Assembly: GCA_051382335.1 (NCBI GenBank) | Contig: JBBCAX010000218.1 | Span: 1 to 14,063 of the forward strand | Direction: 5' to 3' | DNA: 14,063 nucleotides | Source: Deltaproteobacteria bacterium TL4 | GTDB lineage: Bacteria > SAR324 > NAC60-12 | In this document: positions 3,388-13,800 of the stretch, one piece after another | Numbering within the stretch: position 1 is the first letter of the stretch | Layout of the letters: the number at the start of each line of letters is the position of its first letter | The notes under the pieces: model-generated | Seen by the model: the letters and a program-made list of their open reading frames with translations, nothing else | Told to the model about the DNA's origin: nothing | The model's database searches: none | Made by a program: the position numbers and the translations under genes

Positions 3388-4308
3388 ATGGAACACGGAA
3401 AACAACCCAATAAAAAAGCGATTGTTCTTGCGAATTTCGGCACAACCCATCCCTCTGCGGTGCAAGCCTTGACACACACCCAAAGTGTTGTTCAAAAAAC
3501 CTTTCCCGAGATTCCGGTTCAAATTTGTTTTACCTCCAACATGGTTCGGAATATCTGGAAAAAACGGCAAGAAAATAAAAAAGGGTGGCTGGATCAAGGC
3601 GTTAGCAAAGAAATTATGGGCGCGAAAAGTTTTTTGGGCGTCATTGGAGAACTACAGAATGCGGGGTTCCGAACCATCATTGTTCAGCCAACTTACATTG
3701 CCCATGGAGAACAGTTTGAAGATTTACGATCGTATGTTCATGGACTGCAATCCATTCAAACCATTAAAAAGCGATGGATGCCTTTTGAACAAATTGTTCT
3801 GAGTCGTCCCACTTTAGGCACTCATGGAATCGAATATAACTATCGGGATGATGTTGCGGAGGTGGTTAGCAGTTTGGTTGCGGACGTAGAACTGGCACGG
3901 AGGTACCAAGCGGATATTGTTTATGTCGGACATGGAAATGAATATTTTTCGGCGGGAATCTATTCGGAAACTCAAAAAGAATTTCGAAAACAATACCCCG
4001 ACATCAAAACTTTCATTGGCGTTGTTGAAGGTTATCCCTTGCTGGAGGATTTGATGGGACCGTTACAACAAGAAGCCAAGAAGAAATTAATTTTGAAACC
4101 TTTTATGGTTACCGCCGGAGAACACGCGCATAGTGATCTCGCTGGAGAAACGGGTTCCTGGAAAACTGATTTGTCGGACGCGGGGTTTGAGGTCATCTCT
4201 ATTTTGGAAGGTCTGGGCTCAAACCCGGAATTCGCCCAGCTTTATGCAAAGCGAATTCAGCAAACAGCCCATGAGCATGGCATCGATTTAACCTCCCAGA
4301 ATGAATAG
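3388..4308 (+). CDS. cbiK: Sirohydrochlorin cobaltochelatase (anaerobic, CbiK type)
   Basis: Motifs AIVLANFGTT, FTSNMVR, IIVQPT, YVGHGN, GVVEGYP, LKPFMVTAGEHAHSDLAG, SWK and GLGSNP. AAGGA RBS. First gene of the cbi cluster. Confidence 0.9.
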   Translation: MEHGKQPNKKAIVLANFGTTHPSAVQALTHTQSVVQKTFPEIPVQICFTSNMVRNIWKKRQENKKGWLDQGVSKEIMGAKSFLGVIGELQNAGFRTIIVQPTYIAHGEQFEDLRSYVHGLQSIQTIKKRWMPFEQIVLSRPTLGTHGIEYNYRDDVAEVVSSLVADVELARRYQADIVYVGHGNEYFSAGIYSETQKEFRKQYPDIKTFIGVVEGYPLLEDLMGPLQQEAKKKLILKPFMVTAGEHAHSDLAGETGSWKTDLSDAGFEVISILEGLGSNPEFAQLYAKRIQQTAHEHGIDLTSQNE

Positions 4309-4320
4309 TTGAGCATTGGA

Positions 4321-5667
4321 ATGAAAGCCATCATGATTGCGGCGCCTTCAAGTGGAAGTGGAAAAACCTCCATAACCATGGGACTCCTCAGAGCTCTTGC
4401 GCAACAGGGTTTGGACGTCTGCGCGTTCAAGGTTGGACCTGATTATATTGATCGCGGATTTCTTGAAATCGCGTCTCAAAAACCAGGTGGAAATTTGGAT
4501 TTACACCTGCAAGGGGAAGAGGGCGTTTGGTACGCGCTGAGTTTAGCTCAAAGTGAGTTTTGTCTCATTGAAGGGGTTATGGGGTATTTTGATGGAATTT
4601 ATAACACCTGGGAAAATTCAAGCTACCATCTCTCTCAGCTATTGGGGATTCAAACCGTATTGATTTACACGCCTCAAGGGGAGATGTTCAGCGCGATTCC
4701 CAAAATCAAAGGGATGGCTGATTTTGAGCGTTCCAATATCAAAGCGGTTATTTTTAACAAGGTTTCTCCACACACCTATGAACTTTTGAAAAACGCGATG
4801 GAGTCCCATACCGCCTTAAAAGTTTTGGGCTTCATTCCCCCAATGGAAAGCCTTCAACTGCCCAGTCGGCATTTAGGTTTGGTTCAAGCCCAGGAAATTG
4901 AAAGTGTGGATGAAAAGATTCAGCTCTTGGCTCAAGTCATTGAAAACCATCTAGATATCCCTGCTTTCCTCGAATTGATGCAAGAGGTTCCTCAACAAGA
5001 TTCAGGTTTAGTTTCGGCTTTGGTTAAAACAAAAATTACCATTGCGATTGCGAAAGATCAGGCCTTTTCATTTTATTACCAGGAAGATCTGCGTTTGTTG
5101 GAGCAAGTCGCTACGGTTCGATACTTTTCTCCCCTTCATGACTCCGTGTTGCCTTGCTGTGACTTACTCTACCTGGGAGGCGGGTACCCTGAAGTTTATG
5201 GGAAAGAACTCGCGCAAAATGACTCCATGCTCCGTTCCATTCGTGACTATGGAGAAAGAGGAGGGTTTATTTATGCGGAGTGTGGAGGCTTGATGTACTT
5301 GGGCGAATCGATTGATGACGCAAAGATGGTTGGTTTATTCAACGGAAAAAGTTCATTAACCCCACAACTTCAACGCTTTGGTTATATTGATATCGAACTC
5401 AAACAGGATTGCTTTTTAGGCAAAACAGGAGCTTCCTTGAGAGGCCATGAGTTTCATAAGTCGATAACCTCGATCCAGGATGAGCCTCTCTTTCATATTC
5501 AGAAAACCAAGGGCGATCAAAAATGGGAGTGTGGTTATACCTACAAAAATGTGATCGCAGGATATCCACATATCAGTTTAGCTGGCAATCCCAAAGTAGT
5601 TGAAACCATGCTGAACACGATTCAAAAGGCAAAGAACCAACTCATTGAGAAAAGTGATGTATCTTAA
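4321..5667 (+). CDS. cbiA: Cobyrinate a,c-diamide synthase (CbiA/CobB)
   Basis: P-loop SSGSGKT, FKVGPDYID, IEGVMGYFDG, SRHLGL, and glutaminase-domain motifs GGGYPE, YAECGGLMYL and GHEFH. Alternative start TTG 4309. Confidence 0.95.
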   Translation: MKAIMIAAPSSGSGKTSITMGLLRALAQQGLDVCAFKVGPDYIDRGFLEIASQKPGGNLDLHLQGEEGVWYALSLAQSEFCLIEGVMGYFDGIYNTWENSSYHLSQLLGIQTVLIYTPQGEMFSAIPKIKGMADFERSNIKAVIFNKVSPHTYELLKNAMESHTALKVLGFIPPMESLQLPSRHLGLVQAQEIESVDEKIQLLAQVIENHLDIPAFLELMQEVPQQDSGLVSALVKTKITIAIAKDQAFSFYYQEDLRLLEQVATVRYFSPLHDSVLPCCDLLYLGGGYPEVYGKELAQNDSMLRSIRDYGERGGFIYAECGGLMYLGESIDDAKMVGLFNGKSSLTPQLQRFGYIDIELKQDCFLGKTGASLRGHEFHKSITSIQDEPLFHIQKTKGDQKWECGYTYKNVIAGYPHISLAGNPKVVETMLNTIQKAKNQLIEKSDVS

Positions 5668-6283
5668 AGATCCAGTACAAATTGAAACCCGAAGTATGGA
5701 AATTATCGAAGCAGAGATGGATCCCCATCAATGGAATGCTGAAGAATTAGCTGTTGTCAAACGAACCATTCATACAACAGGCGATTTGGAATATCAGCAT
5801 TTGGTGGACATCAAAGCTGACGCCATTGCTTCAGGCATGAAGGCGATTGAATCAGGCTGCCGCATTGTGACTGATACCCAAATGGCGTTTTCAGGAATCA
5901 ATAAACGAATACTGGAACAATTCAACTGCCGGATTGATAATTTCATGACACATGATGAAGTTTTCCGGATCGCAAAAGAACAAGGCATCACCCGAGCTAT
6001 GGCCGCAATGGAGTTTGCGTCTCAGGAAGGCGTTGATATTTTTGTGATCGGCAATGCGCCAACAGCGTTATATAAAATTGGAGAACTCATCGAACAACAA
6101 AAAGTAACGCCTAAATTAGTGATAGGAACTCCTGTCGGTTTTGTCGGAGCCACGGAATCTAAAGACTATATTCGCCAATTTAAGATTCCTTCCATTACCA
6201 CCATTGGCAGAAAAGGCGGCAGTGCGGTTTCTGCCGCAATTATGAATGCGATCCTTTTGTTGACCAGGGATCGAAATCAATAA
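5657..6283 (+). CDS. cbiC: Cobalt-precorrin-8 methylmutase (CbiC/CobH)
   Basis: IETRSMEII, RTIHTTGD, ITRAMAAM, VIGNAPTAL, PVGFVGATESK and GRKGGSAVSAAIMNA. ATG 5657 overlaps the end of cbiA. Confidence 0.95.
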   Translation: MYLKDPVQIETRSMEIIEAEMDPHQWNAEELAVVKRTIHTTGDLEYQHLVDIKADAIASGMKAIESGCRIVTDTQMAFSGINKRILEQFNCRIDNFMTHDEVFRIAKEQGITRAMAAMEFASQEGVDIFVIGNAPTALYKIGELIEQQKVTPKLVIGTPVGFVGATESKDYIRQFKIPSITTIGRKGGSAVSAAIMNAILLLTRDRNQ

Positions 6284-6300
6284 AACAAGGAGGATTCGTG

Positions 6301-7383
6301 ATGGAAGCGACTTATGTGATTAAGCATGGAAAGCAACTCAGAAAAGGCTATACCACAGGAAGTTGTGCCGCGGGCGCGGCAAAAGCGGCGGCGATGATGC
6401 TGGTTTCGCAGAAAGTCGTGGATCTGGTCGAAATTGAAACACCTGCAGGCGTTAAATTACAATTATCGGTGTTGGACACTGAAATCACAAACGAAAGTGC
6501 GTCTTGCGCGGTTGTTAAAGACTCTGGCGATGATCCTGACGTTACGGATAAAGTTAAAATCTACGCAACCGTCAAAAAGCGTTCCGATGGTGAGATTATT
6601 ATTGAAGGGGGACAAGGAATTGGACGAATTACCAGAGCAGGATTTATTGGAACCCCGGGTGATGCCGCTATTAATCCTGTGCCTCGGAAGATGATTGGTG
6701 AAGAAGTCGGTCGTGTCGCCAAACATGGGTGGGACGTCTTGATTTACTGCCCTGAGGGCGAAGCCATCGCAAAGAAAACCTTCAACGCCAACCTTGGTAT
6801 TACAGGCGGAATTTCTATTTTGGGAACAACGGGTATTGTTGATCCCATGTCAGAAGAAGCCTGGAAACAAAGTGTGTTTCTTGAAATTGACGCCATCGAA
6901 TTCGCGAAATCTCCAGAAATCATCCTTTACTTAGGCAATTACGGACAACGCCTGATAGCGCAACTCGCGTTGACAGCGCCCTCGGTTAAAATTTCGAATT
7001 TCATAGGCGAGACCTTGTTGTATTGTCAAACCCAGTCTTTTGAAAAGGTGACCTTAATCGGACATATTGGGAAATTGTCAAAATTAGCGTTAGGCGCCTT
7101 CAATACTCATAGCAAAGTATGCGATACCCGGATTGAAGCCTTTGTCTATTATCTGGCTTTGGCAGGCGCACCCCTGAGTTTGCTGCATCAAGTGAATCAA
7201 TGTGCTACAGCGGAAGAAGCCCTGCGTTACCTGATTAAAGAAGACGCCTATGCCACCATTTTTCATGAGATGGAACTGGGGTGTGTGGAGCGGATCAGGC
7301 GTTATTTAAAAGATCCCGAGTTCAATATTCAGGTCATTTTGTTTTCTATTGATTATGGCTTATTAGGGAGCGCGAGATCATGA
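6301..7383 (+). CDS. cbiD: Cobalt-precorrin-5B C1-methyltransferase
   Basis: LRKGYTTGSCAAGAAKAA, KDSGDDPDVT, AINPVPRKMI, GGISILGTTGIVDPMS and GHIGKLSKLA. AGGAGG RBS at 6288-6293. Confidence 0.96.
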   Translation: MEATYVIKHGKQLRKGYTTGSCAAGAAKAAAMMLVSQKVVDLVEIETPAGVKLQLSVLDTEITNESASCAVVKDSGDDPDVTDKVKIYATVKKRSDGEIIIEGGQGIGRITRAGFIGTPGDAAINPVPRKMIGEEVGRVAKHGWDVLIYCPEGEAIAKKTFNANLGITGGISILGTTGIVDPMSEEAWKQSVFLEIDAIEFAKSPEIILYLGNYGQRLIAQLALTAPSVKISNFIGETLLYCQTQSFEKVTLIGHIGKLSKLALGAFNTHSKVCDTRIEAFVYYLALAGAPLSLLHQVNQCATAEEALRYLIKEDAYATIFHEMELGCVERIRRYLKDPEFNIQVILFSIDYGLLGSARS

Positions 7384-7976
7384 TTTCCGTAGTAGGAATG
7401 GGGCCTGGAAATATCCGGTATTTAACACAAGAAGCCATTGACGTTATCAGAACCGCGGACAGACGAATCGCTTTTGGACGGATCGCGAAAACCGCGGAAC
7501 AAATTGCCAAACCCGTCATCGAAATACAACGGGTTCAGGAAGTCTTGGACGCAATCGAAGCAGGTCAGCATAACGCTATCCTGGCCTCCGGGGATGCCTG
7601 TTTTTATGGAATTCTGGAATACTTGAAAAGCAAAGGGGTGGTCATTGACTCGGTTTCGCCAGGACTTTCTGCATTTCAATACATGATGGCCAAGCTCAAA
7701 CGGAGTTGGAGTCATGCGGCTTTGGTGAGTTTACACGGAAGCGATGATCAATTCCCAATTATTGAAAACCACCCGTTATCCATTGTCTTGACCGATCATC
7801 AAAATACGCCCAATCGCATTTCTCAAAAACTACGAGAGTCGGGAGTCTCCGGAAAAATGCTCATCGGCTATAATTTATCTTATGACAATGAATGGATTGG
7901 AGAAAGTCTCATCGGAGAAGAAATAGAAGAAAAACCAGGAATCTCTTTAGTGGTGGTGGAACATGAAATGGATTAG
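7380..7976 (+). CDS. cbiE: Cobalt-precorrin-7 C5-methyltransferase
   Basis: VVGMGPG, LASGDACFYG, PGLSAFQY and SLHG. ATGA overlap with cbiD. Lies directly before cbiT. Confidence 0.9.
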   Translation: MISVVGMGPGNIRYLTQEAIDVIRTADRRIAFGRIAKTAEQIAKPVIEIQRVQEVLDAIEAGQHNAILASGDACFYGILEYLKSKGVVIDSVSPGLSAFQYMMAKLKRSWSHAALVSLHGSDDQFPIIENHPLSIVLTDHQNTPNRISQKLRESGVSGKMLIGYNLSYDNEWIGESLIGEEIEEKPGISLVVVEHEMD

Positions 7977-8514
7977 AGATGAAGCGTATATTCGTGGAAC
8001 AACGCCAATGACCAAGTTTGAAATCAGGTCGATTTCCTTAGCGATGCTGGAAGTGGAACCCCATGAGGTGTTACTCGATATTGGGGCCGGAACCGGTTCT
8101 GTCAGCATTCAGGCCGCTTTGCTTGGGGCACAAGTCTATGCGATTGAAATGTCTGATGAGGGTTGTTCCTTAACGCGGCAAAACGCGTCCCTGTTTGAGG
8201 TTGAGATGCATCTGATTCAAGGCATAGCTCCAGAGGCGATGAAGCAGGTTCCTGATTTCAATAAGTGTTTTATTGGCGGCAGCCACGGACAGTTGCAGGC
8301 GATCATGGAAACCGTCGATCAGCGTTTGGCTTCAGGAGGACAGGTTGTGGCCAACTTTATCCGACTCGAAAATCTGTTACTGTTTAAAAAATTTCTCGAA
8401 CAGCAAGACTATCAGAACATCGAAACCCGAATGATTCAAGTGTCCTTAATGGACTCAATGGGAATGATGCGAGCACAAAACCCTGTTGTCATTATAGGAG
8501 CCAAAAAAGCATGA
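7963..8514 (+). CDS. cbiT: Cobalt-precorrin-6B C15-methyltransferase (decarboxylating)
   Basis: PMTKFEIR, class I SAM motif LLDIGAGTGSVSI, FIGGS and AQNPV. Confidence 0.92.
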   Translation: MKWIRDEAYIRGTTPMTKFEIRSISLAMLEVEPHEVLLDIGAGTGSVSIQAALLGAQVYAIEMSDEGCSLTRQNASLFEVEMHLIQGIAPEAMKQVPDFNKCFIGGSHGQLQAIMETVDQRLASGGQVVANFIRLENLLLFKKFLEQQDYQNIETRMIQVSLMDSMGMMRAQNPVVIIGAKKA

Positions 8515-9167
8515 AAAAACTTATAGGTATCGGCGTAGGTCCCGGAGATCCAGAGTTGATCACCGTGAAAGCCGTGAACGCCATTCAAAATTGCGCTTAT
8601 GTTTTTGTACCTAAAAATAAGGGAGATAGTCTTGCCGGAAATATTGCCGCACCGTATTTAAAAGATAAACCGCTCTTGGAACTTGCTTTTCCCATGGGAG
8701 AAGATAATGCTCAACGTTATATTCAAGCGGCAAAAACCATCAATGAGACGTTGAATTCAGAGGAAACCGGTGTGTTCTTAACGTTGGGAGACCCTCTTAC
8801 TTACAGCACCTTTGCTTATTTAAGGCAGGAAGTAATCGGACTTGGGATTGAGGTGTCTGTTATTCCAGGAATTACTTCTTATCATGCGGCCGCCGCCGTT
8901 TTGGGAGAAGCGATAACCCTCAGGGATGAAGCCTTCTATCTTGCCGATGGAAATGTTGAAGAGGAGGTTTTGACGTTCGTCGATTCAGTCTGTATTTTGA
9001 AACCTCTGAAAAATATGGAAACTCTCTTGGATCGTCTTGAAAAACATGATTTCCATTATGTGTATGTCAAGCGCTGCGGTCAAAAGGGAGAAACCATTCT
9101 CAAAGAGCGGAACCTGATTCTTCAGGAAACCGATTATCTGTCATTGATTTTAGCAAAAAGGAATTAA
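8511..9167 (+). CDS. cbiL: Cobalt-factor II / precorrin-2 C20-methyltransferase (CbiL/CobI)
   Basis: GIGVGPGDPELITVKAV, FPM, FLTLGDPLTYST, IPGITS and C-terminal YLSLIL. ATGA overlap with cbiT. Confidence 0.92.
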   Translation: MKKLIGIGVGPGDPELITVKAVNAIQNCAYVFVPKNKGDSLAGNIAAPYLKDKPLLELAFPMGEDNAQRYIQAAKTINETLNSEETGVFLTLGDPLTYSTFAYLRQEVIGLGIEVSVIPGITSYHAAAAVLGEAITLRDEAFYLADGNVEEEVLTFVDSVCILKPLKNMETLLDRLEKHDFHYVYVKRCGQKGETILKERNLILQETDYLSLILAKRN

Positions 9168-9168
9168 C

Positions 9169-9924
9169 ATGGTTTATTTTGTGGGTGCGGGACCAGGCGA
9201 TGTCGACTTGATTACCGTCAAAGGACGTCGTTTGTTGGAACAAGCGGATGTCGTGATTTATGCGGGATCCCTGGTATCGGAGCAACACCTGAAGTTTTGC
9301 AAAGCGGAATGTGAATACCACGACAGTGCGTCCATGACTCTGGAGGAAACAGATCAACTGATTCAAGAGGCAGAGAAACAAAAGAAAATGGTGGTTCGAC
9401 TGCATACCGGAGATCCAACAATTTTTGGAGCGATTCAAGAACAAATAAAATGTTTGGAAAAAGAAAATATTTCCTTTGAAATTGTTCCAGGCGTTAGTTC
9501 TTTTACGGCAAGTTGCAGTGTTCTTAATCGTCAATTCACGTTGCCCGGAGTCAGTCAAACGGTTATTGTCACTCGGATGGAAGGAAAAACGTCAGTTCCT
9601 GAGGCTGAAAATTTGGAATCCCTGGCAGCGCATAAATGTTCGATGGCCATTTTCCTTTCCGTACAACAAATCGACGAGGTCGTGTTTCATTTGAGCAAGG
9701 GTTATGAGGACCAAAAAGTTCCAGTGGCTGTGGTTTATAAGGCAACGTGGCCTGATCAGAAAATTGTCAAAGGAACCTTAATCGATATCGCCGGAAAGCT
9801 CAAAGAGGCCAATATTAATAACTTTGCCATGATTTTAGTCGGATATTTCCTGGATACAGAGTTCGAGCGGTCGATGTTATACCACCCCGCGTTCACGCAC
9901 CGTTTCAGAGAGAAAACCTTGTGA
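9169..9924 (+). CDS. cbiF: Cobalt-precorrin-4 C11-methyltransferase (CbiF/CobM)
   Basis: VYFVGAGPGDVDLITVKG, IYAGSLV, VRLHTGDP, FTLPGVSQTVIVTR, VYKATWPDQ and LYHPAFTHRFR. Confidence 0.96.
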   Translation: MVYFVGAGPGDVDLITVKGRRLLEQADVVIYAGSLVSEQHLKFCKAECEYHDSASMTLEETDQLIQEAEKQKKMVVRLHTGDPTIFGAIQEQIKCLEKENISFEIVPGVSSFTASCSVLNRQFTLPGVSQTVIVTRMEGKTSVPEAENLESLAAHKCSMAIFLSVQQIDEVVFHLSKGYEDQKVPVAVVYKATWPDQKIVKGTLIDIAGKLKEANINNFAMILVGYFLDTEFERSMLYHPAFTHRFREKTL

Positions 9925-10934
9925 AATTGGCCTGCATCGCATTCACTCCAGAGGGAAGGAACCTCGCCCTGAATATTCAACAACGCTTTGACGGCAAGGT
10001 GGATCTGTATTCCAAAGAGAATTATAAGGAGAGCCTCCCCCTCATTTTTGAACAGTATGACGGCCTTGTGTTCCTTTCTTCCACAGGCATTGCGGTACGT
10101 CTTTCCGCTCCCTTCCTTAAAGATAAAAACACAGATCCCGCGATAGTGGTTGTCGATGATTTGGCACGCTACGCCATCAGCCTGGTGTCTGGACATTTAG
10201 GGGGAGCCAACGAATTAACGGAGTCCCTCGCAACGCTGTTGAAATGTCAACCCATCATCACGACGGCCTCTGATGGCAGAGGAATTGAGGCGATTGATCT
10301 CTTTGCGCAAAAACATAACCTGGTCATTGGAGATATGAATGACGCGAAAATCATTACCGCAATGATGCTTGAAGGCAAAAAGATTCAAATCCTGCTCGAA
10401 AGTGGAGAAGGCTATGAAAGCCTGTCTCCAAATGACAAGGAGAAGGGGCTGCGAATCCAATATCCCTACCTGGTTGAAGAACACCCTGAGGGTTGTGTGT
10501 TTATTACATCAGCGACTCGGGTTGAGTGCAAGTTACCTTCGGTTTTACTCCACCCTAAAATCCTCAACCTTGGCGTTGGATGCAGGAAAGGGAAAACAAA
10601 AGACGAGCTATTCAACGCCATTGTTTCTGTTTTTGGAACCCATCATTTAAGCCTGAAGAGCGTCAAAAGACTGGCAACCCTTGAGCTTAAAATCCAAGAA
10701 CCGGGCATCCAGAAAATTTGCCAAGAACAAGGGTGGGAATTAAAAGGTTTTTCAAACGCGGAAATTGAAGCGGTACAAGTACAGTTTGAGCAAAGTGCCT
10801 GGGTGCAAGCTTCTGTTGGCGTAACCGGAGTTTGTGAACCCTGCTGTTATCTTGCGGGCGGAACCCTCATTGTGAACAAAACGGCAATCAACGGTATCAC
10901 CGTGTCCGTATCCAGAGAGCGTATTTATGGCTAA
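9921..10934 (+). CDS. cbiG: Cobalt-precorrin-5A hydrolase
   Basis: GIAVR, KDKNTDPAIVVVD, ISLVSGHLGGANEL, PIITTASD, LGVGCRKG and GVCEP. GTGA overlap with cbiF. Confidence 0.94.
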   Translation: MKLACIAFTPEGRNLALNIQQRFDGKVDLYSKENYKESLPLIFEQYDGLVFLSSTGIAVRLSAPFLKDKNTDPAIVVVDDLARYAISLVSGHLGGANELTESLATLLKCQPIITTASDGRGIEAIDLFAQKHNLVIGDMNDAKIITAMMLEGKKIQILLESGEGYESLSPNDKEKGLRIQYPYLVEEHPEGCVFITSATRVECKLPSVLLHPKILNLGVGCRKGKTKDELFNAIVSVFGTHHLSLKSVKRLATLELKIQEPGIQKICQEQGWELKGFSNAEIEAVQVQFEQSAWVQASVGVTGVCEPCCYLAGGTLIVNKTAINGITVSVSRERIYG

Positions 10935-11646
10935 GTTGTATGTTATTGGCATCGGTCCCGGAGGAAAAGAACACCTCACTCAGCGAGCGCTTGAAGTCTT
11001 AAAACATTGTCAGGTGATTGTGGGCTACACCTATTACCTCAAACTGATTGAAGACTTGATTGAAGGGAAGTCCCTCATCAAAACAGGGATGACCGGTGAA
11101 ATAGATCGATGTAAACGGGCGATTGAAAAAGTTAAAGAAGGAATAGAGACTGGTTTGGTAAGCACCGGAGACGCGGGGTTGTACGGCATGGCAGGTCTGG
11201 CTTACGAACTTGGAAACGATATTGAAATTGAAGTCATTCCGGGGGTGAGCTCGGTCTTTGCCGCAGCAGCGGAAACAGGTGCTCCGTTGATGCATGATTT
11301 CTGTACCATCAGTTTGAGTGATTTACTCACCCCCTGGGAGATCATCGAAAAAAGAGTGGAAATGGCGGCCCAGGGTGATTTTGTGATTTCACTCTATAAT
11401 CCCAAAAGTCAGACACGAGTGGAACCTTTCAGAAACACGGTTTCCATCATTTTGAAATATCGCCAGGATTCAACACCTGTGGCTCTCGTCAAAAACGCGG
11501 GACGGGAGGGAAAGGAGCAAATCATTACCACCTTGGCCAACATCGATTACGATTTTGTCGATATGAAAACCATTGTCATTATCGGGAATAGCCAAAGCTA
11601 TATCCAAAATGGAAAAATCATTACACCCAGAGGTTATGCACTTTGA
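10927..11646 (+). CDS. cbiH: Cobalt-precorrin-3 C17-methyltransferase (CbiH/CobJ)
   Basis: LYVIGIGPG, STGDAGLYGMAG, GAPLMHDFCTISLSDLLTPW, LYNPKS, VDMKTIVIIGNS and ITPRGY. Confidence 0.96.
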   Translation: MAKLYVIGIGPGGKEHLTQRALEVLKHCQVIVGYTYYLKLIEDLIEGKSLIKTGMTGEIDRCKRAIEKVKEGIETGLVSTGDAGLYGMAGLAYELGNDIEIEVIPGVSSVFAAAAETGAPLMHDFCTISLSDLLTPWEIIEKRVEMAAQGDFVISLYNPKSQTRVEPFRNTVSIILKYRQDSTPVALVKNAGREGKEQIITTLANIDYDFVDMKTIVIIGNSQSYIQNGKIITPRGYAL

Positions 11647-11649
11647 AAG

Positions 11650-12335
11650 CTAGAGTGTGGACACAAAGATCGGAAACTTTTCCACCTGTGCAGGTGTAGG
11701 TCGTCCAAATCAGTTTAATTTTTTTCCCCACTTTTTGGAACTCTCACCAATGTAGAGAGACTCTATGCTGTGATAGGTCCAATAGTTTTCAGAGTTAGCC
11801 TGTTTTTTTACATTGAAGAACTCCCGTTTTAGAAGGCCCTATGTTATTCGAAAAAGTATCTGAAATGTTTCAAGATTGGGTTGGCCTATTTAATAAGGCG
11901 ATGTAAATTCATGAAGCGCGCTTTGGTCGATACTTTGGGAGGCGTCAAAAATGCCAATACGGTTTGTTTGAGTCCTTTGGACGCTTGTCTACAGGCGGAT
12001 AGGAACGTTTGGAAGAGAGGATGATTTTGATATTCATGTTTCAGTAGCTTGGCAATAGCGTGAGAAATATCGCTAAGCATATCGCTGCCCATTCCTCTTT
12101 CGGTTAAAAGTCTCACAGCTTTAGATAAATCGCATCCACCATCTTTGAGATAGGCGAGGGGGCGACCATAAACAGCGATCACACGACTCAAAAATTCCGC
12201 GATTTTTTCGCCAGTCCACGAGACCGATACTGCGACGGCAAAACAGTTCACTTCGGAGAGCGTTGGGGCGCTCGGATGTAGAGCATGATGGTTTGCGTTG
12301 AGTCCGAGAATCGTCAGTATTTTACCGGCGCCGTT
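11650..12335 (-). mobile_element. Decayed insertion-sequence remnant; possible terminal sequence CTAGAGTGTGGACAC at 11650-11664
   Basis: Transposase fragment plus ~200 bp of downstream non-coding DNA ending 3 bp after the cbiH stop. No partner inverted repeat is visible, so the left boundary is tentative. Confidence 0.45.
11847..12335 (-). pseudogene. Internal fragment of a DDE-type transposase, with no start codon and an in-frame stop
   Basis: The frame of ORF 11886-12251 stays open upstream to ~12338 (GAGKILTILGLNANHHALHPSAPTLSEVNCFAVAVSVSWTGE). It contains YLKDGGCDLSKAV, DISHAIAKLLK and PPKVSTKARFMNL, which I recall from an IS transposase family. After the TAG at 11886-11888 the same frame continues ANPILKH. 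Confidence 0.65.
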
Positions 12336-12474
12336 ACCTTAGGAACACGGTTTGTTCGCTGTTTGCTGGCTGGTTTCCCGCCAGTGCCGCATGATCGGTT
12401 CCATAGCATTGAAAGCCAGTGGCTTTCCTATAGGGGACTTTCACACCATCAGATCACGCCCATATTGGGCGTAC
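12335..12474 (-). ncRNA. 5' fragment (start of domain I) of a group IIC-like intron, truncated
   Basis: The minus strand reads TTGT|GTACGCCCAATATGGGCGTGATCTGATGGTGTGAAAGTCCCCTATAGG. The GT start, the ACGCCCA/TGGGCGT hairpin and the GGTGTGAAAGTCCC element match the pattern of IIC intron 5' ends. No RT ORF and no domain V or VI are present. Confidence 0.65.
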
Positions 12475-12566
12475 ACAAACGCATAGACTACAGCCATTTT
12501 TGGCACACGAAAACTGATCAACAGGCGACGATCTCAAACGGGTGCTAGTCATGCTAAGCGTTAGCA
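12475..12566 (+). mobile_element. attC: Integron attC recombination site, with R'' interrupted by the intron fragment
   Basis: Residual R'' AC (12475-12476), 5-bp spacer AAACG, L'' CATAGACT (12482-12489) pairing with L' AGTCATG (12547-12553) with an unpaired 4th base, 6-bp spacer CTAAGC, and R' GTTAGCA (12560-12566). An RBS and ORF follow immediately. Confidence 0.75.
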
Positions 12567-12584: not shown

Positions 12585-13235
12585 ATGAACATAATAGCGA
12601 TAAAACAATTAGAATCTGGTAAAAATGTGTTTTTTATCACGGATGAGTACGAAGAATACACACTTGAGGAAATAATAACTCTAGTGAAAAAGGGTAAAGT
12701 GGATAACGTACAAACGGTGTGTACAGAGATCGGTACGCAATATATTAGGTCTAAAGCGAATCAATTCAAAAGTGATAATCTTGATAGTATCGCTATTTCG
12801 TGTAACGAAAATGATTGTTTACTTTTTGATTTAAAATATCTTTATTTGAAAGCTCAAAATGGAAGAATAAAGCGTAAATGGAAAGCTACTGCTGGAAATC
12901 AGGGTTCTACAGCGCAGGATCAGTATAAATCGGATTATGGCCCTCTTCCTGAGGGTGAATACGAAGTGAGGTTTGATAAAACTCTTGATTTTGAAAATAG
13001 TAAAAGCCTTTGGGATAAACTTAAATGGATTGTTAAAAGTCCATCATGGGGATTTGTTAATACTCCACTTTATCCATCAAAAGATAATGAAATGTACGGT
13101 CGGGGGGATTTTTATATCCACGGAGGGACAACGCCAGGGTCAAACGGTTGTATTGACTTGGCTGATAAAAATGAGGATTTCCATATCCTTTTAAGACTGT
13201 ATCACAGAAATTTTCGGTTAATTGTTCAATATTGA
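12585..13235 (+). CDS. DUF3892-like N-terminal domain fused to a Tlde1/DUF2778-like L,D-transpeptidase-fold domain
   Basis: GGAGGG RBS. N-terminal YTLEEIITLV...YIRSKANQFKSDNLDSI is DUF3892-like. C-terminal GPLPEGEY...WG...GRGDFYIHGG..PGSNGCI gives the His/SxGC catalytic signature. Confidence 0.75.
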   Translation: MNIIAIKQLESGKNVFFITDEYEEYTLEEIITLVKKGKVDNVQTVCTEIGTQYIRSKANQFKSDNLDSIAISCNENDCLLFDLKYLYLKAQNGRIKRKWKATAGNQGSTAQDQYKSDYGPLPEGEYEVRFDKTLDFENSKSLWDKLKWIVKSPSWGFVNTPLYPSKDNEMYGRGDFYIHGGTTPGSNGCIDLADKNEDFHILLRLYHRNFRLIVQY

Positions 13236-13239
13236 AATC

Positions 13240-13800
13240 ATGAAGAAATTAAAACAGATACTAGATAACAAACTATTTTTTCAATACTTTCCTTTGATCC
13301 TTTTTTTAGTTCTCGTTTTGATTGCTCAGATTGATGCTGTGTTTTCATCAAAGGGTCTTTGGTCACTGAATGAAATAGATGATCCCTATGTAAACTATTA
13401 TCAGAATAGCTTAATCTCTAATATACAACTCATCGCTATATTTATTGATTGTATGATTTTGCTTCTTATTTTTTTAAAGGTTACAAGATTAAAAAATGAA
13501 TTATTATCCAAAGGCTTAATGTTTTTTTTATTACTTGGAGTTTTCTTTATTTGGTTTGAATTATGGTATGGTTCAACTTTTTATTATGGCGAAGTCAGAG
13601 ATAAACAGGGGTTACCATTGACATTAAATAATATTGGAATTGTTGGGAGCATTTTATTTTTGCTGTATTTCCTACTAAATATAAAATTATTTATAAAGCT
13701 TAAAACCATATCCAAAATCGGCATAGTTTTCATAGTCATCTGTGGGCATTGGGTTGCGGTAAAAATGCTGGAAATTCCCTGGAATTTTGTATCTTCATAA
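13240..13800 (+). CDS. Multi-pass membrane protein (~5 hydrophobic segments); candidate immunity or partner protein
   Basis: ATG lies 4 bp after the upstream stop (alternative TTG 13222). Several long hydrophobic stretches with a polar loop WFELWYGSTFYYGEVRDKQGL. AT-rich like the upstream gene. Confidence 0.7.
   Translation: MKKLKQILDNKLFFQYFPLILFLVLVLIAQIDAVFSSKGLWSLNEIDDPYVNYYQNSLISNIQLIAIFIDCMILLLIFLKVTRLKNELLSKGLMFFLLLGVFFIWFELWYGSTFYYGEVRDKQGLPLTLNNIGIVGSILFLLYFLLNIKLFIKLKTISKIGIVFIVICGHWVAVKMLEIPWNFVSS

Follow-up and report, generated by a model that had tools for sequence, protein, structure and literature searches.

A probable fossil of a group IIC-attC intron in a damaged attC site, and intron-filled attC sites elsewhere in the genome of Deltaproteobacteria bacterium TL4

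Features of the locus

The window, by which we mean the whole 14,063-nt stretch of DNA analysed here, carries between positions 11697 and 13800 a transposase gene remnant, the beginning of an intron, a degenerate attC site and two genes on the plus strand.

11697..12332, minus strand: remnant of an IS-type transposase gene, 97-98% identical to G000:C253
12285..12548, plus strand: 87-aa ORF spanning IS, intron and attC; a chimera, not a gene
12335..12474, minus strand: 5' part of domain I (nt 1-140) of a group IIC-attC intron, by BLAST and copy alignment
12475..12566, plus strand: degenerate attC of a 106-bp family, by box geometry and sister alignment
12475-12476, plus strand: R'' remnant AC, followed by a 5-bp spacer to 12481
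12475..12478, minus strand: bottom-strand TTGT of the attC, the IBS1 target, to which the EBS1 ACAA of full copies is complementary
12482-12489, plus strand: L'' box, CATAGACT
12547-12553, plus strand: L' box, AGTCATG
12560-12566, plus strand: R' box, GTTAGCA, preceded by a 6-bp spacer
12585..13235, plus strand: gene for a 216-aa protein with DUF3892 and Tlde1 domains, by domain match
13222..13800, plus strand: gene for a 192-aa hydrophobic protein, no family match

The 87-aa ORF was rejected as a gene, as it is chimeric and belongs to no Pfam family; similar antisense frames run over other copies of the intron. Neither a second attC nor an integrase was found within the window, and the locus thus counts neither as an integron nor as a CALIN. 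Judged by eye from the translations, positions 3388-11646 hold a cobalamin biosynthesis cluster, and the debris of IS, intron and attC starts right after it. Short multi-copy repeats lie beside the IS end (11667-11696), the end of another multi-copy element is found at the contig edge (13800-14063), and positions 233-361 hold three direct repeats of 39 nt that each contain a short palindrome rich in GC.

The 140-nt stump and its full-length relatives

Read on the minus strand from 12474, the sequence begins GTACGCCCAATATGGGCG and stands immediately 3' of the bottom-strand TTGT. The earlier note, made from the letters of this DNA, had proposed that 12335-12474 is the 5' end of a group IIC-like intron inserted directly after this TTGT in an attC site, that only about 140 nt of the element are left, and that a BLAST search of the genome might reveal full-length copies and what they encode. 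The search bore this out: the 140-nt piece has 41 BLAST matches in the genome, most full-length ones being 94-98% identical, the junction at 12474/12475 reads TTGT followed by GTACG, and the piece corresponds to nt 1-140 of introns that are complete elsewhere in two forms. One is an RT-coding copy of 1985 nt (C217:476-2460), and the other is an ORF-less copy of 707 nt (C362:1097-1803) with no ORF over 63 aa. Assignment of the stump to one of these forms is impossible, since nt 1-357 are common to both.

The full copies match Rfam models RF02001, RF01998 and RF00029 above the gathering score and thus qualify as group II introns. Nothing was found in the window by Rfam up to an E value of 5, as the domains covered by the models lie past the end of the stump. 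The RT of the family scored 370 bits on TIGR04416 (cut-off, 300) and showed only the RVT_1 and GIIM domains in Pfam, with no endonuclease domain. Among plasmid sequences, its best matches show 51% identity; two of the three that were opened lie in attCs belonging to class 1 integrons and the third lies beside an attC-like hairpin. In an RT tree of 19 rows, the family was placed together with four RTs from class 1 integrons and with two sister introns, C177 and C6; the support of 89/90 is moderate, short of what the tool takes as strong. Four other class C-like rows fell outside this group. The closest solved structure to the sister RT of C6 was the GsI-IIC RT.

EBS1 is ACAA in most copies, complementary to the IBS1 sequence TTGT, and is deleted in the window copy. 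Six copies carry the variants ACCA or CCAA, which do not track their exons; covariation of EBS1 and IBS1 within the genome was rejected on account of these mismatches, and it was likewise rejected for metagenome copies, in which TGGT and ATGT exons stand with ACAA. Compared with known IIC-attC introns, the family carries about 60 extra nt within the 5' portion of domain I. The GTACG start, which the earlier note had taken to be unusual, turned out to be normal for the lineage and no novelty: all five attC-type plasmid introns examined begin with GTACGCCC directly after TTGT. Together, these results support the view that the homologues of 12335-12474 are 5' ends of introns of the IIC-attC kind, located after attC bottom-strand hairpins and mostly at TTGT.

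The stump itself cannot splice, because EBS1 and domains II-VI are gone. It carries three substitutions (intron nt 10, 11 and 30) that are present in no other aligned copy. The window locus is thus likely an inert remnant of a known intron class, the stump being ordinary and likely inactive.

The attC site in the window is degenerate

The L'' and L' boxes pair at 7/7 positions with one extra base, and the 5- and 6-bp spacers are exact. Such geometry was found at 0.051% of 65,263 TTGT sites genome-wide, a fraction that includes real attC sites. The attC-like geometry of the window site is therefore not due to chance. According to PMC3053210, attC sites are defined by RYYYAAC and GTTRRRY cores and measure 57-141 bp. 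In the window, R'' is cut after AC and R' (GTTAGCA) matches GTTRRRY at 5/7 positions, so that the full pair of cores is missing; this fits a decayed, interrupted site, not a working attC. In addition, 9 nt of the stem next to L'' are absent, which are kept in all seven aligned sisters, and the fold reached -9.5 kcal/mol compared with -11.7 to -18.0 in the sister sites and was not better than that of shuffles (z = -0.83). The earlier note had called the site canonical and had suggested folding its minus strand. The spacers and the 7/7 L-box pairing stand, while the shortened stem, the imperfect R' and the hairpin, weaker than in the sisters and shuffle-like, do not agree with that description.

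A home-made covariance model, R1, was built from 19 other attC sites (17 free sites of this genome and two from class 1 integrons). R1 gave no match to the window attC up to E = 10. Given two sister sites, it matched that at C197 weakly (18.2 bits, E 0.005) and missed that at C114; in the genome-wide search, in which 150 of 1372 candidates were scored, none of the 106-bp family was listed. In the view of the earlier note, its reading would have been contradicted by the absence of a covariance-model match together with homologues of 12335-12474 lying neither at intron 5' ends nor next to attC sites; the former happened with the home-made R1, and the latter did not.

Introns are also borne by seven sister attCs within the 106-bp family, of which no intron-free complete member was found. 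This last point, the weak folding of the window copy and its lack of an R1 match would all be expected if the hairpin were some other palindromic repeat into which an ordinary IIC intron, of the kind that targets hairpins, had inserted, and terminators are also usable by IIC-attC introns (PMC7923331). Such a repeat would, however, have to show exact 5-bp and 6-bp spacers and 7/7 L-box pairs with an extra base, and most of its sister sites would have to carry a GTTRRRY-type R', as they do here. Moreover, at both C114 and C197 the sister site is followed by a two-gene unit and then by another intron-split R''. We therefore regard a non-attC repeat as very unlikely and treat the site as a degenerate attC.

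Proposed history of the locus and the downstream gene pair

Past intron nt 140-141, the window sequence enters the inside of a transposase-like gene. The corresponding protein (G000:C253:73177-74551) is at least 424 aa long and matched transposase-named clusters in the ESM Atlas at 0.96-0.97; no family was found for it in Pfam and NCBIfam. The remnant in the window is cut on its 5' side at the intron junction and has also lost about 620 bp internally, the two ends of this second deletion having 7 nt in common. At the intron/IS junction at most 1-2 nt are shared, and no intron 3' end was found within the window.

With high confidence, we read this stretch as the 5' 140 bases of a IIC-attC intron at the TTGT of a damaged attC, likely a fossil left by a deletion beside a broken transposase. 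An intron RNP would have reverse-spliced into the folded attC bottom strand, with EBS1 ACAA pairing with TTGT, and would have split R''. The remaining 570-1850 nt of the intron may then have been lost in a later deletion that also took away the upstream cassette and, from the neighbouring IS, its 5' part; attC and stump would have decayed afterwards. We infer this order of insertion, deletion into the IS and decay as the simplest reading.

The junction could also be an assembly chimera of two repeats, the real locus having a full intron. The assembly consists of 445 contigs, many of which are broken inside this intron family, and the junction is given by the assembly alone. Among public runs, one DNA run contains 7% of the words, its short contigs bridge no junction, and no RNA run containing them was listed, which speaks neither for nor against a chimera. 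An overlap of 1-2 nt at most is nevertheless too little for a k-mer join, and private changes are present in each of the three parts, stump, attC and IS piece, as would suit a real copy that is old and has decayed. A chimera is accordingly considered extremely improbable, and the deletion-left fossil remains our reading of the junction.

The 216-aa gene is likely the first gene of a downstream cassette. It has a 31% identical paralogue at G000:C114, where a sister attC with an intron is followed by the paralogue, a hydrophobic gene and a closing intron 3' end. The 192-aa hydrophobic protein of the window likely represents a putative partner (immunity-like) gene of the cassette; no alignment was obtained between it and the partner gene at C114. 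Since the broken R'' should block recombination, the Tlde1-domain gene pair in the window is likely a stranded cassette, and the arrangement at C114 supports this reading.

An outward promoter (Pout) driving this cassette would offer a reason for the stump to have been retained. Promoters of this type are common, not universal, in domain I or II of IIC-attC introns. Those documented in PMC3001079 (Table 3) lie mostly at nt 66-119 of domain I, and the stump has the right orientation. The domain I of this family is longer, however, and its TTGCCY -35 hexamers at nt 166-177 lie past the break. In full copies, a sequence scan picked out weak TTGCCY candidates between nt 144 and nt 177, and it found none in the stump. 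A sigma-70 scan gave no site inside the stump and two sites, both from 12566 onward, where 0.7 +/- 0.9 were expected, and the three private substitutions of the stump also count against its retention as a promoter. There is thus only a slight chance that the stump has been kept for this function, and an inert remnant is the reading that we prefer.

Intron occupancy of attC sites across the genome

The genome-wide attC census combined a rule-based scan with BLAST extension (80 loci, three of which were dropped) and 10 added model matches. The rule-based scan returned 86 rows, compared with 2-3 in shuffles, and 52 of these rows were dropped before the census. The dropped rows comprised three single matches and two multi-copy palindromic families that mimic attC in the loose scan, one with units of 108-111 bp (33 rows), the other with units of 119 bp (16 rows).

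The census comprised 87 sites, namely 35 occupied sites, 14 free sites with TTGT, 27 free sites with GAGT (a 123-125-bp family) and 11 other free sites, among which, by eye, C19:650 also has TTGT and C299:7166 is doubtful. Occupancy was thus about 35/50 for TTGT-type attC sites versus 0/27 for the GAGT-spacer family; the Fisher value of 3e-13 for this difference is overstated, given that sites are related, that occupied sites seeded the search, that 150 of 1372 model candidates were scored and that the assembly is fragmented. The GAGT family has the spacer TCGGC, with GAGT on the bottom strand, and is found in short-cassette arrays (C246, C265, C31, C40, C283 and others). No occupied site had its best match to a seed of this family.

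At the 35 occupied junctions, the sequence was exactly TTGT in 25 cases and TTGG in five, and five junctions were shifted by 1-2 nt. The 41 classified intron 3' ends (16 of the ORF-less type, 19 of the RT type and six others) were directly followed by T in 39 cases, and four of them were tandem junctions. The four head-to-tail tandems (C217:475/476, C177:102/103, C152:165-167 and C400:1514/1515) include some that join different intron families, and two are joined through a T. The junctions that read TTGG or are shifted could have arisen by re-insertion where an intron was already present.

Two full-length integron integrases are present in the genome, and the one at C413 heads a cassette array, making up a complete integron. 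By eye, the cassette genes of this integron include a putative cytosine methyltransferase gene, a nuclease-like and a Vsr-like gene.

An ORF-less lineage within and beyond this genome

The exact ORF-less motif occurs 14 times in the genome with 14 different downstream flanks, three of them tandem. Seven RT-type copies span one spot in the maturase region, where four, located at different sites (C217, C197, C309 and C400), are one base longer than the other three, and the frame is shifted at this spot in both translated copies (C217 and C197). Uninterrupted long RT frames were found in two sister introns, C6 (443 aa) and C177 (430 aa, stop to stop). The 14 flanks, the frameshifted RT copies and the intact RT frames of C6 and C177 suggest that the ORF-less copies likely spread in trans, as far as their sequences tell; gene conversion between copies is an alternative to such spread.

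Of 40 relatives, eight had a match to the 707-nt query, and three complete 699-nt ORF-less copies at TTGT were found in the genome G015. Searched with a 23-nt motif that lies immediately before domain V, the GTDB collection yielded 10 matches. Five of these, of the 699-nt type, are in one genome and were counted once; the other five are in four MAGs labelled Desulfocapsaceae, Leptospira, Patescibacteria and Proteobacteria, which could be mis-binned, the matches lying on short contigs or contig ends. The same motif had 14 metagenome matches, seven of them complete at 640-876 nt. Identity over domains III-VI was 58 to 100%. In the consensus fold of 11 copies, the stem of domain IV is closed and a near-invariant hairpin immediately precedes domain V; two-sided changes were seen in 17/57 pairs, most of them outside domain IV. 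The conserved, non-coding domain IV was seen in L007:820-1104, L010, L028 and L046-L068.

Some ORF-less copies end in CCCTCT instead of CCGAT. Some metagenome copies are inserted at TGGT, ATGT or ATTT, and R1 matched an adjacent hairpin in five of the eight ORF-less copies from outside the TL4 genome on which it was run. Because of these variant targets and the 5/8 hairpin matches, the attC specificity of the ORF-less lineage is not absolute.

We tentatively propose, as an idea that we hold somewhat less probable than its opposite, that an intron epidemic, of which the stump would be one trace, has affected the chromosomal integron pool, filling about 70% of the TTGT attCs. Some of the copies involved, protein-less or frameshifted, would depend on an RT supplied in trans. 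The ORF-less form would then be an old lineage of its own with a domain IV conserved across distant bacteria, two spacer bases would give the GAGT family, the largest attC family of the host, its immunity, and intron pressure may shape the expansion of attC families.

Relation to known introns

IIC-attC introns, which insert antisense into the attC bottom strand at TTGT/T (PMC7923331), have already been described, as has their presence in arrays without an integrase (PMC7923331, PMC3001079 and PMC8876359). The introns studied here share with them the antisense position at this target, the GTACGCCC start after TTGT, EBS1 ACAA, and an En-minus class C RT that groups with theirs in the tree; they differ in having an ORF-less form and the roughly 60 extra nt, and the window copy differs in being a 140-nt stump. 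Truncated group II introns are more numerous than intact ones in bacteria, according to PMC3245105. UHB.F1, in a soda-lake cassette array described in PMC7923331, is likewise a truncated IIC-attC remnant opposite to cassette transcription; it is 5'-truncated, whereas of the window copy nothing but the 5' end is left, next to the remnant of an IS.

Group II introns lacking an ORF are reported to be rare in bacteria (PMC4424553 and PMC3245105) and to lie nearly always beside a related RT-coding intron (PMC4424553), and attC occupancy by introns is given as low in PMC3001079. Multi-copy ORF-less introns beside RT-coding relatives likewise occur in Thermosynechococcus elongatus, whose IIB1 introns are known to be mobilised in trans (PMC8643678). 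Those introns were tested experimentally, whereas here we infer trans mobility for introns of the IIC type that are attC-specific. We did not find an ORF-less IIC-attC family or an occupancy this high described in the literature searched; older papers or supplements may list ORF-less or multi-copy IIC-attC introns.

The stump is of little weight, and the leads are the ORF-less lineage, the GAGT family that introns have left untouched, and the occupancy pattern of the genome. In this genome, occupied sites stand next to free ones, one family is unoccupied, and there are tandems as well as ORF-less copies at many different sites; it offers a natural test of the rules by which IIC-attC introns choose their targets and of the effects of introns on an integron. 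If the ORF-less domain IV is a minimal RT-binding module, the lineage would represent a compact attC-targeting retroelement and a way into trans mobilisation in class C.

Non-IIC attC introns of the UHB.I2 type insert into the top strand, in the same sense as the cassettes; the window element, being on the bottom strand, is not of this type. A separate top-strand attC intron like the UHB.I2 type is present elsewhere in the genome. At C362:971-1101, a 131-bp attC has been invaded twice, by a bottom-strand ORF-less IIC intron at R'' and by a different intron on the top strand in R'. This second intron starts with GTGCG, matches RF02005 and is inserted after GTTG; introns of the same type were also found at C165:957 and C42:1051, and all three copies follow GTTG.
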